In this document: piece by piece, positions 35,940 through 42,379 of the stretch
Layout: every line of letters starts with the position of its first letter
Position numbering within the stretch: the stretch's first letter is position 1
NCBI GenBank assembly: GCA_963838295.1
Contig: CAWIQS010000002.1
Span: 19,156-83,155, forward strand
From: an uncultured Acidobacteriaceae bacterium
Lineage (GTDB): Bacteria; Acidobacteriota; Terriglobia; Terriglobales; Acidobacteriaceae
Length of the DNA: 64,000 nt
Reading direction: 5' to 3'
Position numbers and translations under genes: made by a program
The notes under the pieces: generated by a model
The model's input: the letters and a program-made list of their open reading frames with translations, nothing else
What the model was told of the DNA's origin: nothing
The model's database searches: none

Positions 35940-36083
35940 ATGAAGCTCACTCTCGCCATTCTCGCGCTCATCGTCTTTGCCCTGTCCTTCGTGGCGGACT
36001 ACAAATGGCGTCAGTGGATGAACAAGCGCCGCGCGGATCACGATGCAACGCAAGCCTCCGACTCAGATCGCCGATCCCCGTAA
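35940..36083 (+). CDS. Small membrane protein (47 aa), not in the ORF track
   Basis: MKLTLAILALIVFALSFVADYKWRQWMNKRR...: one TM helix followed by basic residues. Confidence 0.55.
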   Translation: MKLTLAILALIVFALSFVADYKWRQWMNKRRADHDATQASDSDRRSP

Positions 36084-36220
36084 CGCGCGAAGGTTACCAG
36101 CACCTGCCTTGCAGCCGTCTCCGATGCCCCACACCCCGTCTTCCAAAGTGGAAATTCCCCTCTGCAACTTTCTTCCTTTGCAGCCGTTACAATGGGTATA
36201 AGGGAGTCGTCCAAGCCACC

Positions 36221-36916
36221 ATGCCCAGTAACCTTGCCCACGCCCTTCGCTTGCCCACGCTTCGCACCGCTGTATGGATGGGCCTCGCCACGGCGCTGCT
36301 CGCGGTCTCGCCCTTCGCGCGCGCCCAGTTTTCTGCACCGGCCACCACGCCCGTGCACGATCCCGCTGCCCTCAGGCCGCCCGCCGGCGCTCACGTGGCC
36401 ATCGTTGAATTTGAAGACATGGAGTGCCCCGACTGCGCCAATGCCAATCCGCTGCTCCGCGAAGCCGCAGCCAAGTACAGCATTCCCTGGGTCCGCCACG
36501 ACTTCCCTCTGCCGTTCCACGCCTGGAGCTTCCAGGCTGCCGTCAACGCCCGCTGGTTCGACACCAAGAGCAAGAAGATCGGCGACGACTACCGCGACGC
36601 CGTGTTTGCCAACCAGCCCTCCATCTCCAACCTTGATGTACTGCGTCAGTTCACTGAGAACTTCGCCAAGACCCACAACATCGCGCTGCCTTTTGCTATG
36701 GATCCCCAGGGCAAATTCGCCGCCGAGGTTAAGGCCGACTACGCGCTGGGTCAGCGCATCGGCATTGAACACACGCCGACGATCTGGATCACGACCGCCA
36801 ACAGCAAGGGCGCGCCGTTTGTCGAGGTCGTCGACCGCACCAAGCTTTATCAACTCATCGACCAGGCCGTTGCCGACACTCGATCGGCGCCTGTAAAAGC
36901 AACGGCACACAAATAA
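36221..36916 (+). CDS. DsbA-family thioredoxin-fold protein
   Basis: EFEDMECPDC, RHDFPL, GIEHTPT; start ATG 36221. Confidence 0.85.
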   Translation: MPSNLAHALRLPTLRTAVWMGLATALLAVSPFARAQFSAPATTPVHDPAALRPPAGAHVAIVEFEDMECPDCANANPLLREAAAKYSIPWVRHDFPLPFHAWSFQAAVNARWFDTKSKKIGDDYRDAVFANQPSISNLDVLRQFTENFAKTHNIALPFAMDPQGKFAAEVKADYALGQRIGIEHTPTIWITTANSKGAPFVEVVDRTKLYQLIDQAVADTRSAPVKATAHK

Positions 36917-36946
36917 TGTCGTTGTAGTTCCGGGCCCCACTTTCCC

Positions 36947-37396
36947 ATGTCAGACTTTCGCCATGTCGTAGAAATTCGAGTTTCACCGGCAGACGTCTGG
37001 AAAGTACTGCTCGATGTCGAACGCTGGCCCGAGTGGACCACCTCCGTCAGCAAGGTCCAGCGCATGGATATCGGCCCTCTGACCCTGGGGAGCCGCACCC
37101 GCATCTGGCAGCCGAAGCTCATGCCCGCCGTCTGGCAGGTCACCTCGCTCGACGAACAGCGCCACATCTTCGCCTGGACCACCCACACATTCGGCATCAA
37201 GATCAACGCCCGCCACCAGGTGGACGCCATCGGCGCGCGCAGCCGCGTCACCCTCTCGCTCACCTACACCGGCGTCGTCGGAGCCGTCCTGGCCCGCGCC
37301 TACCGCGACCTCAACTGGGACTACCTCGCCCGCGAAGCCAACGGCCTCCGCGGCCACTGCGAAGCCCCGGTAGTTCACCACGCGCAGGCGCGGTGA
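36947..37396 (+). CDS. SRPBCC (polyketide cyclase-like) family protein
   Basis: SPADVWKVLLDVERWPEWT. Confidence 0.85.
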   Translation: MSDFRHVVEIRVSPADVWKVLLDVERWPEWTTSVSKVQRMDIGPLTLGSRTRIWQPKLMPAVWQVTSLDEQRHIFAWTTHTFGIKINARHQVDAIGARSRVTLSLTYTGVVGAVLARAYRDLNWDYLAREANGLRGHCEAPVVHHAQAR

Positions 37397-37562
37397 GTGG
37401 TCAGTGGACAGTGGACAGTGGTCAGTGATCAGTGGTCAGTGGACAGTGGACAGTGGACAGTGGTCAGTGGACAGTGGTCAGTGGTCAGTGGTCAGTGGTC
37501 AGTGGTCAGTGGTCAGTGGTCAGTGGTCAGTGGACAGTGGTCAGTGGTCAGTGAGCAGTCGT
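37395..37562 (+). repeat. Tandem heptamer array (CAGTGGW)n, about 24 units
   Basis: Direct reading of CAGTGGT/CAGTGGA units starting at the SRPBCC stop codon. Confidence 0.95.
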
Positions 37563-37623
37563 CAGCTTGAGTTTTCAGTGGTCAGTTATCAGTCTTCAGT
37601 TCTTAGCCATCTGCAAATCAGGT

Positions 37624-37694
37624 GTCATCCTGAACGAAGCGGCTTGGGGCCCCGCGGACCAAAGTCCGTGGGGTAAGCGGAGTGAAGGATCTGC
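37624..37694. repeat. REP-like element, family A
   Basis: GTCATCCTGAACG ... GAAGGATCTGC. Confidence 0.75.
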
Positions 37695-37864
37695 TTTTTT
37701 TAACGCCTGGCCAACGGCCACAAACAAAAGCGGAGGCCGAAGCCCGTTGTCAGGTTTCAGTGGACAGTGAGCAGTGGTCAGGGAGCATCGAGCAATGAGC
37801 GAGTGAGAGCAATAAGCAACCTGAATCGCTGCCCCGGGGCGAATCACAGTAAAAGTTGGTGGCT

Positions 37865-37962
37865 GTCATTCTGAGCGAACGGGGCCCCGAACGTTTTTGG
37901 GGCCCCGAAGAGCGCTTTTGCTCTTTGGGGTAGGTTCGGGGGTGGTGAGTCGAAGAATCTGC
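37865..37962. repeat. REP-like element, family A, with nested hairpin
   Basis: GTCATTCTGAGCG ... GAAGAATCTGC. Confidence 0.75.
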
Positions 37963-38047
37963 TTCTGCATCCTTCCCTTTAGTCCAGCAGAAGTGAGAGT
38001 TCTCCGATAAATTGGGTTCCACAGAGCCCTTTGGAGGAGGACTTCAG

Positions 38048-38314
38048 ATGCGGAAGAGCCGGTACACGGAAGAGCAGATTGTAGGGATATTAAAGGAGTC
38101 GGAGGCGGGTCTGGAGACAGCGGAGCTGTGTCGCAAGCATGGGATCAGCGACAAGACGTTTTACCGCTGGAAGGCGAAGTACGGTGGGCTGGAAGTGAGC
38201 GAAGCGCAGCGGCTTCGTCAACTGGAAGAAGAGAACCGCAAGCTCAAGCAGCTGGTAGCCGAACAGGCTTTGGACATCGTCGGATTCAAGGCGGTGCTAT
38301 CAAAAAAGTGGTAA
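38048..38314 (+). CDS. IS3 transposase OrfA (HTH)
   Basis: MRKSRYTEEQIVGIL...CRKHGISDKTFYRWKAKYGG...LEEENRKLKQLVAEQ. Confidence 0.9.
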   Translation: MRKSRYTEEQIVGILKESEAGLETAELCRKHGISDKTFYRWKAKYGGLEVSEAQRLRQLEEENRKLKQLVAEQALDIVGFKAVLSKKW

Positions 38315-39156
38315 GCCCACAGGCCAGGAGAGAAGCCGTCGCGGTATTTAGGACTGCGACGGACTGTTCGGAACGGCATGCCTGTGGGCAGCTGGAAGTG
38401 TTGCGAGCTATGTTGCGCTACGGTAGGCGGGAGAGGCGCTTTGCCGAAGCCAACGGTCGTCTGCGCGTTCGCTTGAGGGATTTGGCAGAAGATAGACGTC
38501 GCTGGGGCTATAGTGGGTTACATGTTCTGTTGCAGAGGGAAGGCTGGACGGTGAACAGCAAACGGGTCTACGGGATATAGGTGGAAGAGAAGCTGATGGT
38601 GAGTAGAAGTAAGAGGAGATGTGGGATCTGAGTGAAGGTGAGAGTGATGTTGGTAGAGTTAGTAAGGAAGAAGGAGATATGGAAGATGGATTTTTTTTAG
38701 GATGTATTGGTTTTTGGTAGTAAGATAAGTAAGTTGTGGATTGAAGATGAGTATAAGAGGGAGATGTTGGTGATAGAAGTGGATATCTCGTTGTTGGTAT
38801 TGTGAGTAGTAAGAGTGTTGGATAGGTTATGGTAATATAGAGGTTTGTTAGTAAGGATTGTTATTGATAAAGGTATGGAGTTTATTTAGAAGGTTTTGGA
38901 TGAGTGGGTATATGAGAATAAGGTTATATTGTATTTTATTATATGAGGATGGTAGATGGAGAATGGTTATATAGAAAGTTTATATGGTAAGTTAAGAGAG
39001 GAGTGTTTTAAAGAATATTGGTTTTTTACTTTGGAAGATGAGAGGGAGATTATAGAAAGTTGGTGGATAGATTATAAATAGGTGTGTTAGTATAGAGTTT
39101 TGGGTTATTTGATATTTGAGGAATTTGTAAAGGGTTATGTAAATGTGGAAAGTTAA
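38311..39156 (+). pseudogene. IS3 transposase OrfB (DDE) with many premature stops caused by loss of C
   Basis: Frame is kept without indels but codons expected to contain C carry T, A or G instead; stops at 38578 and onward. Confidence 0.8.
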
Positions 39157-39357
39157 AAAAGTTTAAATATTTATATAGTATTGATGTTGTTTGAGAAATG
39201 AATTTGTAGTTAAACTTTAATTAGAGTGCTATTATTTGTATGGATTAAGAAGGGTGTTCTTCGGCATCTCTCTGACCGGACTAGTCACACGGGTGTCATT
39301 CTGAACGAACGGAACCGCAAACGCAAAAAAGAACAGGTGCGTAAGGCCCCTGTTCTT

Positions 39358-39408
39358 TCTGTTCACTGCACACTGTTCACTGTCCACTGACCACTGTCCA
39401 CTGTTCAC
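39358..39408 (-). repeat. Heptamer repeat, same family as 37395, opposite strand
   Basis: CTGTTCACTGCACACTGTTCACTGTCCACTGACCACTGTCCACTGTTCACT right after the radical SAM stop. Confidence 0.85.
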
Positions 39409-40436
39409 TAAAGCTGTATCTTCACCAGCTCGCCCTGCTGCCCCGGCGAAACTGTGCTGGTCTGCGGAGCCCTCCAGTGGTCGATGTGGCTGATGCGGTG
39501 CACGCATCCAATCGTGCAATTCGGCGCGCAGCTCTTCGCCGTCAAAAACTCCCGCTTCACATCCGCGGTCGTGTACTCGCGCAAGCGGCACACCCGGATA
39601 CCCTCTCTGCTGCGAGCAGTAATGCACCAGCCCGTCCTCGCAGATATACAGATACCGCGACCCCGCCCTGCAGCGCCACTCATTCTCGCGCCCCTGCACA
39701 ATCGCTTCCTGAAACGCGTCGAACTGCGCGTAGTTGGTCTTCTTCCGATTCGTCATCTCGAAGTAGACCTTCGCCTCGTCCGGCTTCAGCGGCTTCAGCT
39801 GCCCGTCGCCATCATGAATAATCCCGATCGTCGACTCGAACCCCAGCTCCAGCGCCCGCTTCCCAATCACCAGCGCATCATTCGGATCCTTGAAGCCCCC
39901 GCCCACCACCGAATTGATGTTCACGTGAAACTCGGCATGCTCGGCCAGCATCTGCAGCTTCTTGTCCAGAACCTTCAGGCTCTTCTTCGAGATCTCATCC
40001 GGGCTCCAGATTATCGATCGAGATCTGCATGTGATCCAGACCCGCCGCGATTCAGCCGCTCGATCCGGTCAACATTTAGGAGATATCCATTCGTGATCAT
40101 CCCCGCAATCGCGCCCGTCTTGCGCATGCGCACAATGATGTCATCTAAATTAGGGTGCGTCAGCGGCTCTCCGCCCGAGATCCCGATCATGGCCGTCCCC
40201 AGCCGCCCCAGGTGGTCGATCCGCCGCAGCATCTCGTCCAGCGGGACAGGCTCAGAAACCTTGTCGTATTCGTTGCAGTAGGCGCAGGAGAGATTGCAGA
40301 ATCGCGCCGGAACTATCTGCGCCAGAACAGGATGCGACGTAGACGCCAGCGCCCGCGCCACCATCGCATACTCCCGCGCCTTGCGCCGAGCCGCAATCAG
40401 CTTTCCCCTAGCCGTAGATCTCCGGGGAACTGCCAT
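39408..40436 (-). pseudogene. Radical SAM protein with three apparent +1 frameshifts (real or sequencing error)
   Basis: CNLSCAYC, SGGEPL, ITNG, C-terminal CRAG...YC...C..C..GC; frames join after removing single bases near 40046, 40002 and 39579. Confidence 0.75.
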
Positions 40437-40499
40437 TCTTACTATTGAAACATAGTCCGGACCCACTTTGAGCAGTACGTCAGCCCAACTTCAAATGGA

Positions 40500-41447
40500 C
40501 TATAGTGGCCGGTGAGTTGAGAGCAAATGATTTAGAGCGGATGCTCCGTACTTCCTAGCGAGTCTCTCAAGGAATAGTGGCTCGACGGATTTGATGAAGG
40601 AAAGCATTCCCGAAAACTCGGCGATTTCTTTCTCGTTAAGGGCACCCTGTATGTACCTATGAAACCTAGCCCGGATTAGCCTTTTCTTTTCTCTTCCTAT
40701 CGAGACCACGCCGTCGTTCGCAAGAACAAGACCAGTTACTCTTCTGAGGCCTTTCGTGGAAGCATGAACGGTCTTCGCTTCATTCAGTACCAACCGCGGA
40801 GGTCGGGTTTTCTTACAAATCTCGCCAACCTGCGTTTCAATTTCACGCAGGACCCCTCGGGCGTTCGTTGAGAAGGACAAATCGTCTGCGTATCGGGTAT
40901 AAGTAACGCCGCGTCCAGCGCAAAGAGCACTTACTTTTAGATCGAAGTTGTACAGCAATATATTCGAAAGAAGAGGCGAACTCGGTGCACCAATCGAGAG
41001 TTGAAGAACATTCCCGCGCTTTCTTCTCCAGAATAGAATTCTCGAAATATAGCCGATCTCCTCTTCAGTCCACACAGAGGCGAGAGGGTTCAAACGCATG
41101 AACTTTTGAAAATCCGTCGATTTGATGGACGGGAAGAAATTCTTGAAGTCGAGCTTGCACAGGAATTGGTGGGCCGCATGCGGCGCTGTATTGTCCAAGA
41201 TGCTCTTGCCTTTGCGGTACGCGAAGGCAGCAGGATGAACCGGGAACGCCGCTAAGACATGCTCCATGACCCAATACTGCAGCGGCTTCACCTCACGAGC
41301 AGGCTGCGCAATCGTACGCTTCTTGCCGGGAGTCCTCTTTGCAATCTGGTAGACCTTGTATCGATAAGGCGCAGAATTCACAAGGTAGAGCAAGTCCTTC
41401 GGTGGCAGCGCGAGATCACTCGAAAGCAAGTCCAAAAATTTGCTCAT
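40500..41447 (-). CDS. Retron reverse transcriptase (St85/Ec86-like)
   Basis: KRTIAQP, region X NTAPH, KLDFKNFFPSI, LSIGAPSSPLLSN, YTRYADDLSFS, region Y VTGLVL; 315 aa. Confidence 0.92.
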   Translation of the reverse strand: MSKFLDLLSSDLALPPKDLLYLVNSAPYRYKVYQIAKRTPGKKRTIAQPAREVKPLQYWVMEHVLAAFPVHPAAFAYRKGKSILDNTAPHAAHQFLCKLDFKNFFPSIKSTDFQKFMRLNPLASVWTEEEIGYISRILFWRRKRGNVLQLSIGAPSSPLLSNILLYNFDLKVSALCAGRGVTYTRYADDLSFSTNARGVLREIETQVGEICKKTRPPRLVLNEAKTVHASTKGLRRVTGLVLANDGVVSIGREKKRLIRARFHRYIQGALNEKEIAEFSGMLSFIKSVEPLFLERLARKYGASALNHLLSTHRPL

Positions 41448-42379
41448 GGTGTCGCCCCTGTCGCTCGTCTTTTGAAGGCAGCAAGCGCGCGAGCTTTCTC
41501 TGGTGTCAGGGGTAAATCTTGGCGGAGGAGTGTCCTCAACCTTGATCGATCTTTGGGTGTTTTCGGCGCATAGAGCACATATTCAGGCGCGCCTGCAGGA
41601 TTCATGTAGTAGTCCACGTTTCCATAGCGAAGGGAGGATATAAGTTCAAGCTGCTCAAGTAGGAATAAGTATTTTTTCAGTTCTTGATTCTTTATTATTA
41701 CGTTCAGACCATTGAGGATCTCTTGAATTTCGTGCTGGAGGATCACTACATTCAGCGTGATTAGATCCGCAATCAGAAGCATCAGATGACCATGATCGGC
41801 TTTTCGGAAAGCGGCCGTTTTCGGCTTTTTCGTAAGAATCGCTTGGATCTCTCGTTCCACACCATCGAGCGTGTCGCTTGCACCGGCAGGGTCAATTCTG
41901 GTCGCGCCTCCGCCCGTAGGAAATGAAAGCCACGGGTAAGCTAAGACGCTGTCCGGTCTGATCCTGCGCGTATGCTCCACAAGACCATTTCGAATGAACG
42001 ACTGCTGCCTGAAGTAAGAATCCTCAATGACGACAACGAGCTTATCTTGCAGCAAGTCCATCTGGGAGAAGGCACCAAACTCAGCGATTGCACCTGGACT
42101 TTCTACAAACAACAATACGCAGGCCGAAAGACCCGCAAGGTGCCCTTCCAATTCCAGAAGATCGTCAAATAGCTTTCGGGATTGGTACCACTCGTCCGCC
42201 TTTTCGGCGAGCTGAACTTTCTTGAAGAGGACAGGATTAATCTGTACTTTATCTCTGTAAAAATGGGCGCGGAGGGAGTGTTCGAAGTCGTTTAGAGGCC
42301 CTCCGCACAAAAATATGTAGTCAGGCTGATTCAGAATGGTGAATGCGTTCGAATCTACCGAGTCTGTGAATACACCCAC
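41444..42379 (-). CDS. Retron type II-A effector (nucleoside deoxyribosyltransferase-like N-terminal domain)
   Basis: IFLCGG, DLLELE..LA, FVESPGAIAEFGAF match the Ec86/St85 effector motif ESPGSFTELGAF; ATGA overlap with the RT. Confidence 0.85.
   Translation of the reverse strand: MGVFTDSVDSNAFTILNQPDYIFLCGGPLNDFEHSLRAHFYRDKVQINPVLFKKVQLAEKADEWYQSRKLFDDLLELEGHLAGLSACVLLFVESPGAIAEFGAFSQMDLLQDKLVVVIEDSYFRQQSFIRNGLVEHTRRIRPDSVLAYPWLSFPTGGGATRIDPAGASDTLDGVEREIQAILTKKPKTAAFRKADHGHLMLLIADLITLNVVILQHEIQEILNGLNVIIKNQELKKYLFLLEQLELISSLRYGNVDYYMNPAGAPEYVLYAPKTPKDRSRLRTLLRQDLPLTPEKARALAAFKRRATGATP

Follow-up and report, generated by a model that had tools for sequence, protein, structure and literature searches.

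A cytosine-free tract in an IS3-family element of an uncultured Acidobacteriaceae bacterium: very probably an artefact of long-read metagenome assembly

The right half of an IS3-family insertion sequence (IS) in the genome of an uncultured Acidobacteriaceae bacterium is written almost without cytosine, and this cytosine-free tract is very probably a technical artefact of long-read (Nanopore-type, Flye-style) metagenome assembly rather than DNA of the organism. The element lies within a stretch of 64,000 nt (assembly GCA_963838295.1, contig CAWIQS010000002.1), which was analysed as a whole and is termed "the window" throughout; positions refer to the window unless a contig is named.

The tract is almost certainly not a feature of the organism, and its value is that of a data-quality warning and of a filter rule. 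Species-representative genomes of soil phyla are now largely Nanopore-only metagenome assemblies, and such assemblies hold kilobase tracts from which one base has been erased, as well as poly-G, poly-T or poly-A junk, on the written strand. Dropout tracts of this kind look like low-GC "islands" or like the footprints of hypermutation, of a DGR or of an APOBEC enzyme, and genes that contain them falsely appear as pseudogenes. If the tract were real DNA, it would represent a natural, saturating and strand-specific editing of a bacterial mobile element and the physical trace of a single-stranded stage of copy-out-paste-in transposition; as biology, such a restriction of a transposon by base editing would be unprecedented.

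The cytosine-free tract

The depletion of cytosine is genuinely present in the deposited sequence and lies far beyond chance. The written strand between 38581 and 39240 (660 nt) comprises 211 A, 7 C, 202 G and 240 T, in agreement with the original prediction, which had counted 7 C in 660 nt and noted that G was kept. The GC skew in the C-poor stretch reaches +0.92 to +1.00; the DNA around the tract has a G+C content of 55-60% and a slightly negative skew. A composition scan of all 14 contigs (6.5 Mb) in 200-nt windows for any base below 4% yielded this stretch only (C2:57705-58426, corresponding to 38550-39271 of the window). The same tract was found in none of 40 related genomes, all of which represent different species. 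The features of the locus are compiled in Table 1.

Table 1. Features of the IS locus and its right flank (positions in the window; L020, nearest allele of the IS)
Feature	Position	Strand	Evidence and remarks
Left junction scar	37964-37965		Flank ...AATCTGCTT joined to CTGCATCC; first 4 nt of the IS (TGAG) absent
IS3-family insertion sequence copy	37965-39254	+	Twin at C3:211068-212377, eleven copies on other contigs
Stretch upstream of the ramp	37967-38475		C changed 7/118; non-C differences 1/391, a common allele (vs L020)
orfA, 88 aa, intact	38048-38314	+	HTH_Tnp_1 PF01527, E 3e-25
A AAA AAG slippery heptamer	38302-38308	+	Read in the sequence, kept in 12 copies
orfB (DDE transposase) frame	38307-39248	+	Codon-by-codon comparison with orfB of L020
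Onset ramp	38476-38580	+	C changed 12/27; non-C differences 0/78 (vs L020)
Cytosine-free tract	38581-39254	+	C changed 169/176 (to 39245): 115 T, 46 A, 7 G, 1 deleted
Right junction scar	39254-39255		...GAAGGG joined to flank TGTTCTTCGG; last 9 IS bases GGCAGCTCA absent
Radical-SAM gene, broken	39408-40466	-	Three single extra Cs on the + strand
Reverse transcriptase, intact, 315 aa	40500-41447	-	PADLOC RT_II-A, E 3e-119

The other copies of the element, of which the nearest allele, L020, served as reference for all substitution counts, reveal what has been changed. Wherever the window has T, A or G, cytosine is kept in all 12 other IS copies. In the tract 96% of the cytosines are altered, and 99.4% of the non-C bases (490/493) match the nearest allele; the three non-C differences in 38581-39245 are one common allele and two G>T changes near the 3' end. 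A tabulation against intact copies by context, as had been proposed earlier, gave 115 changes to T, 46 to A and 7 to G. This spectrum upholds the view that simple deamination does not fit, and the same is true for DGRs, since the mutated base is C and the nearby reverse transcriptase (RT) is of the retron type.

The loss of cytosine had been described as ramping up from approximately 38490. A ramp does exist, yet by comparison with L020 it is shorter than apparent, spanning about 120 nt (approximately 38476-38600). Four of the seven scattered C changes upstream of the ramp also occur in L027, a natural but diverged copy in which their effect on the protein is silent or conservative, and to judge from this sequence comparison the four shared changes are probably real alleles. 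Since the scattered upstream changes thus appear to be largely real alleles, the ~120-nt ramp would be the true onset. A long 5'-to-3' gradient starting at 38071 was considered and discarded, because the base at 38071 belongs to the common allele and L027 shares four further positions.

Every C context is affected, irrespective of the 5' or the 3' neighbour. The outcome follows the 3' neighbour: T results when the next base is A, C or T, whereas a C that precedes G mostly becomes A, less often T and least often G. The 5' neighbour is without effect, as the conditional entropy given the 5' base (1.346) is the same as in permutations. A miscall that copies the neighbouring base was dismissed, given that the product is independent of the previous base, and a fully deterministic context rule was also rejected, because NCG yields A, T and G despite the strong influence of the 3' neighbour. 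The share of C>T climbs along the tract, and G>T changes and deletions are found at its end only.

The consequences for orfB are severe: the first 80 codons are nearly normal, and the last 234 codons contain 15 in-frame stops. The codon examples given in the original prediction were reproduced by the codon comparison, where IDNGTEF reads IDKGMEF, TWTMDF reads IWKMDF and VRPHSALGY reads VC*YRVLGY. The frame had been described as free of indels, which is almost correct, except that a few single Cs are deleted near the 3' end and the nine terminal bases of the IS are absent. The proportion of orfB cytosines changed is 77%, 72% and 74% at codon positions 1, 2 and 3, respectively, and as all codon positions are equally affected, no selection acted on the tract.

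Two biological processes were weighed against this pattern. Real hypermutation would have required that the + strand of the right IS half became single-stranded, that its cytosines were deaminated or alkylated and that a translesion polymerase wrote T, A or G. The setting could have been the displaced or transferred strand in copy-out-paste-in transposition, or the DNA could have been broken at the IS end and left with a 3' tail; the hypermutated strand would then have been rejoined without its termini. In support of this scenario, the change is C-specific, strand-coordinated, graded and ends next to the IS end, and the non-C bases are 99.4% unchanged; moreover, mispairing opposite C or G would be expected to yield T > A > G, and the 3' but not the 5' neighbour matters, as if a primer terminus mattered. 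However, the conversion amounts to 96% of 176 cytosines with 30% transversions, which to our knowledge greatly exceeds every deaminase or alkylation cluster reported so far, and we regard hypermutation as quite unlikely.

Alternatively, dCTP (or, in the case of the other strand, dGTP) could have been depleted when the tract was copied, e.g., by a dCTP-deaminase or dGTPase defence, such that the G template was mispaired. Nucleotide starvation would explain why C is almost wholly excluded, G is kept and the spectrum runs T > A > G. Yet a replicative or repair polymerase stalls rather than misincorporates at about 170 consecutive G sites, and starvation would act cell-wide on the strand being made, while nothing else is affected in 6.5 Mb. 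Considering also the strand bias, the junk neighbours and the flank insertions described below, starvation is extremely improbable.

The IS3-family element and its insertion site

IS3 elements carry imperfect terminal inverted repeats (5'-TG...CA-3') and generate a target duplication of 3-4 bp. The element in the window shows an orfA with an HTH_Tnp_1 domain, an overlapping orfB of the DDE type and an A6G site between them. By analogy with the family, the AAAAAAG motif likely serves for the -1 frameshift from orfA into orfB that is usual in IS3 elements. The orfB of sibling copies harbours HTH_21, rve and rve_3 domains, and the window orfB aligns with them codon for codon. The sibling copies end TGAGCTGC...GCAGCTCA, whereas the copy in the window lacks both the complete terminal repeats and a target duplication. 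The element thus belongs to the IS3 family, but the window copy as written is not an intact insertion.

Public sequences contain the identical orfA protein of 88 amino acids in 158 blocks of the collection, and the contigs concerned share no related neighbourhood. The orfA allele in the window is the common one, and that of the C3 copy (E8D) is rare. The IS is highly successful in Danish-type soil metagenomes (copies L020-L032). In the copies L026, L028 and L029 orfB is broken by many single-base insertions and short duplications, which look like consensus errors rather than decay. As 3 of the 11 other copies carry many single-base insertions, IS copies are poorly resolved in such assemblies.

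The complete IS termini, TGAGCTGCATCC...GGGGGCAGCTCA, can be read in the C3, L020 and L022 copies, and comparison with these ends uncovers scars at both junctions of the window copy. The erasure ends at 39254, and the TGTT at 39255-39258 is flank and not IS; hence, the abrupt stop that had been noted near the predicted right end of the element does not lie at a genuine terminus, as the terminus itself is absent. There is no target-site duplication at the window copy. Four related contigs, retrieved via the flanking gene for a 149-aa protein (three with Flye-style names and one SPAdes NODE), all present an empty site, ...AATCTGCTT|TGTTCTTCGG..., and their plain flank at this place also contains TGTT and CTTC, ruling out CTTC at 37962-65 and 39259-62 as a candidate target duplication.

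As far as can be read from the sequence, the scarred junctions are unlike a product of an IS3 transposase and would fit a real insertion with badly called junctions. The related strains have nothing inserted at the site, and what is inserted in the window corresponds to the element over nearly its full length; a genuine IS3-family element probably sits here in a minority of molecules. Under the hypermutation scenario, the absent termini and the absent duplication could instead be read as end-joining after a break. The absent duplication and the truncated termini, together with the empty site in four related strains, might also point to a chimeric read or misjoin, by which an IS fragment was placed where no molecule has it. 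The inserted piece, however, reaches to within 4 and 9 nt of the element ends, which a random chimera would not do, and miscalled junctions of a real insertion are the simpler explanation; the probability of a chimera is accordingly very small. Either way, be it a real insertion or a chimera, the C-free tract is not biology.

The neighbourhood is rich in repeats. A REP-like element beginning GTGTCATYCTGARCGAA is present in three copies (37622-37700, 37862-37964 and 39292-39330), and the IS is located at the end of the second. Heptamer arrays (GTGGTCA/GTGGACA) lie to the left of the IS at 37394-37560 and inverted units to its right at 39362-39412; the copy number of the array varies among five strains. 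Similar C-free or G-free short-period arrays occur across the phylum, and since they are found in both orientations, arrays of the heptamer type are natural and hypervariable.

Flanking genes and neighbouring errors

The radical-SAM gene to the right of the IS is intact in the four related strains (317-341 aa). In the window it is broken by extra + strand Cs at 39578, 39999/40000 and 40045/40046, as determined by comparison with the four relatives, including the SPAdes short-read contig; apart from the inserted Cs, the right flank is the same as in the relatives. The frameshifts in this gene had rightly been taken as a warning sign, and all three turned out to be single spurious Cs. By the same token, the effect is not confined to the IS, as had been assumed. 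C-related errors span approximately 1.6 kb (from 38476 to about 40050), reaching 0.8 kb beyond the IS, all on the written strand, and their kind changes with location: substitutions within the insertion, deletions at its edges and insertions beyond. Cytosine damage in the transposon would not add Cs to a neighbouring gene. Hypermutation thus leaves the three extra flank Cs unexplained, and in the right flank, beyond the supposed break, there is no mirror-image G-coordinated cluster.

The radical-SAM gene is of the MoaA/NifB/PqqE/SkfB type with weak PADLOC matches to pVip and is situated between the IS and a retron; its homologues number at least 8000 and are widespread in soil metagenomes. The retron is a type II-A defence system (40500-41905, - strand). 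The product encoded upstream of the RT (153 aa) aligns with NDT_II-A over the C-terminal half of the latter only (E 8e-24), and on this basis the NDT gene may be truncated or mis-started. On the left side of the IS, a 303-aa ORF is followed, beyond a single in-frame stop, by the 149-aa Polyketide_cyc2 gene in the same frame (36005-37396, + strand). The relatives instead have a Thioredoxin_4 gene of 212-231 aa that ends about 30 nt before the 149-aa gene, and the start of the 303-aa ORF is probably over-extended, as judged from this comparison.

The intact RT gene 1.2 kb to the right of the IS raises the question of DGR-like copying with C as the mutated base and an intact IS copy as the template, all the more as the "template" and the "variable" copy differ at one base only. 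Yet the RT is a standard type II-A retron enzyme with an NDT partner, part of a defence system that makes short msDNA, and the supposed template is located on another contig (C3). The target would be a transposase turned into a pseudogene with 15 stops rather than a ligand-binding protein, the conversion is 96% instead of partial, and tracts of this class show a strand bias as a class. DGR-like copying therefore deserves almost no credence.

Cytosine-free tracts across the phylum

Tracts of 150-182 consecutive non-C letters were searched for in approximately 800 genomes of the family and the phylum. The search sets comprised 401 family genomes and 401 phylum genomes that are at least 90% complete, and an anchored pattern was run in selected genomes. 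Tracts that lack C or G over 150-182 nt or more occur in 22 of 401 family genomes and in 26 of 401 phylum genomes.

Complex, non-repetitive C-free tracts are distributed very unevenly between the strands, with 12 loci on the written + strand and 1 on the - strand. The + strand loci are found in genomes G000, G222, G329, G053, G262 (3 loci), G731, G661, G484, G792 and G746, and the one clear - strand tract is located in G542 at the start of a contig (bases 220-370). Two other reverse-only matches, in G405 and G361, are repeat junk of the (GT)n and AAAG type and likewise lie at contig starts. Long poly-G runs are written as G at 6 of 6 loci (6:0). The natural short-period tandem repeats used as a control, which are frequent in these genomes and also occur on both sides of the IS, fall 13 on the + and 13 on the - strand, and therefore the search is symmetric.

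Several of the tracts border on low-complexity sequence. The G222 tract runs for 1.25 kb without C, is followed by a 65-nt poly-T and has no paralogue in its genome; the G329 tract begins 1.3 kb after a poly-G of 500 nt, and the G746 tract adjoins a poly-A. In addition, homopolymer runs (poly-G, poly-T or poly-A) and (GT)n repeats with lengths from tens up to thousands of bases were observed inside long contigs of species-representative genomes of the family and the phylum (G329:C6:920895-921400; G222:C1:3665207-3665258; G056:C7:3119829 and C29:55210; G766:C4:1160993; G394:C7:1735725; G299:C3:1173518; and others).

No biological process can tell which strand of a contig is the written one. As there are 0-1 credible cases on the - strand, at most about one of the twelve + strand cases could be genuine. 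The tract in the window exhibits the hallmarks of base dropout, i.e., the written-strand orientation and nearby consensus errors or junk, here in the form of bases deleted at the junctions and of three spurious Cs within 0.8 kb. The "strand-specific erasure" of the original prediction thus finds no support as a biological event, since the tract class is tied to the written + strand. Hypermutation is further disfavoured by this orientation of the class and its position next to homopolymer junk. In genome scans, such tracts could be removed by a filter that looks for 150 nt or more without C on the written strand and adds a strand check, and the strand-symmetric natural tandem repeats provide a built-in control.

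Assembly provenance and proposed origin

The Microflora Danica project assembled R10.4.1 Nanopore reads, base-called with Guppy, using Flye 2.9.2 (--meta --nano-hq) and one round of Medaka, and raised the number of Acidobacteriota species in GTDB by 134% (PMC12313526). The genome under study comprises 14 contigs of 11 kb to 1.55 Mb. The IS and the flanking gene recur on ENA contigs whose names (contig_N or _np1212) are in the Flye style, with one SPAdes contig as the exception, and homologues at the locus are annotated as Terracidiphilus or Acidobacteriota. The RT gene has only two records, one on the contig of the window and one on a Logan contig of 1.5 kb from ENA run ERR12035937 (2023); built from the raw reads of this run, the Logan contig is identical to the window from 40425 onward. 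In the Logan look-ups, where absence is uninformative, a 41-aa ORF of the tract had no match and a 239-aa junction ORF was found on its own contig only. Taken together, the signs of provenance fit a Nanopore soil metagenome-assembled genome.

The proposed artefact of assembly or consensus building could have arisen as follows. The IS insertion would have been present in a rare variant covered by one read or very few. Along this piece, C would first have been progressively replaced, by T before A, C or T and mostly by A before G; then some G>T changes and deletions would have set in, accompanied by small deletions at both IS junctions and by three spurious Cs in the following flank. Reads wholly inside the IS would fit clean copies better and hence would not have repaired the tract, and reads from insertion-less strains would cover the flanks only. 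Coverage limited to the flanks would likewise account for the end of the substitutions at the insertion boundary. The fault itself may have originated from a collapse of the base-caller on one read or from a neural consensus step faced with an abnormal pile-up.

The worsening from 5' to 3' and the G222 tract ending in poly-T look like a neural base-caller or consensus model that drifts to T. The constant + orientation may point to a step that acts on the written contig, such as a polisher, rather than on the reads. What speaks against an artefact is that the tract is very clean and holds its frame almost to the end. Such cleanness is easier to reconcile with real sequence, or with an error among the called symbols, than with a noisy pore signal, because a disturbed pore signal is expected to spoil neighbouring bases too. 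A literature search found no published description of such an artefact. A Sanger read with a failed C dye was also considered and was dropped in view of the assembly type and of the presence of the tract class in sister genomes. Among the three readings offered originally, the artefact, then rated at least as likely as the others, is now backed by the strand bias, the junction scars and the flank Cs, whereas the evidence speaks against the two biological readings, synthesis without dCTP and hypermutation.

Comparison with known systems

APOBEC/AID enzymes and clusters in single-stranded DNA (kataegis, yeast) produce C>T changes, with some C>G or C>A after uracil excision, affect a minority of the cytosines and prefer certain 5' neighbours. 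The tract resembles these clusters in being C-specific, strand-coordinated, graded and bounded by a presumed DNA end. It differs in that 96% of the Cs are altered, 26% are changed to A, the 5' neighbour has no effect and the class is biased toward the written strand. The changes are thus not essentially C>T, and a TC or CC preference is lacking.

DGRs share with the locus two copies that differ at one template base only and an RT nearby. DGRs, however, are A-specific and partial in their action, diversify a variable protein domain and rely on an adjacent template repeat and an RT of the DGR clade, none of which applies here: the base is C, the other copy resides on contig C3 and the RT is of retron type II-A.

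GRINS recode proteins, keep the frame open and have a skew that is common to all copies (2021, PMC8256042). Their resemblance to the tract lies in the duplication of more than 500 bp and in the extreme GC skew within a bacterium of high GC content. In the present case a single copy is skewed, its twin is of normal composition, all codon positions are equally altered and 15 stops interrupt the frame; with these stops and a skew not common to the copies, a GRINS was rejected.

Miscalls of Nanopore reads at modified bases are systematic one-strand substitutions that survive into assemblies (Liu et al. 2024, PMC11610603). Such miscalls are isolated sites at methylation motifs throughout the genome, with neither a gradient nor junction scars, whereas here every C of 0.7 kb is concerned. 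The dropout tracts in metagenome-assembled genomes from Nanopore/Flye/Medaka pipelines share with the tract the + strand, a length of approximately 0.7-1.3 kb and the loss of one base with its complement kept, as well as the T-rich outcome, the neighbouring consensus errors and the occurrence in soil Acidobacteriota.
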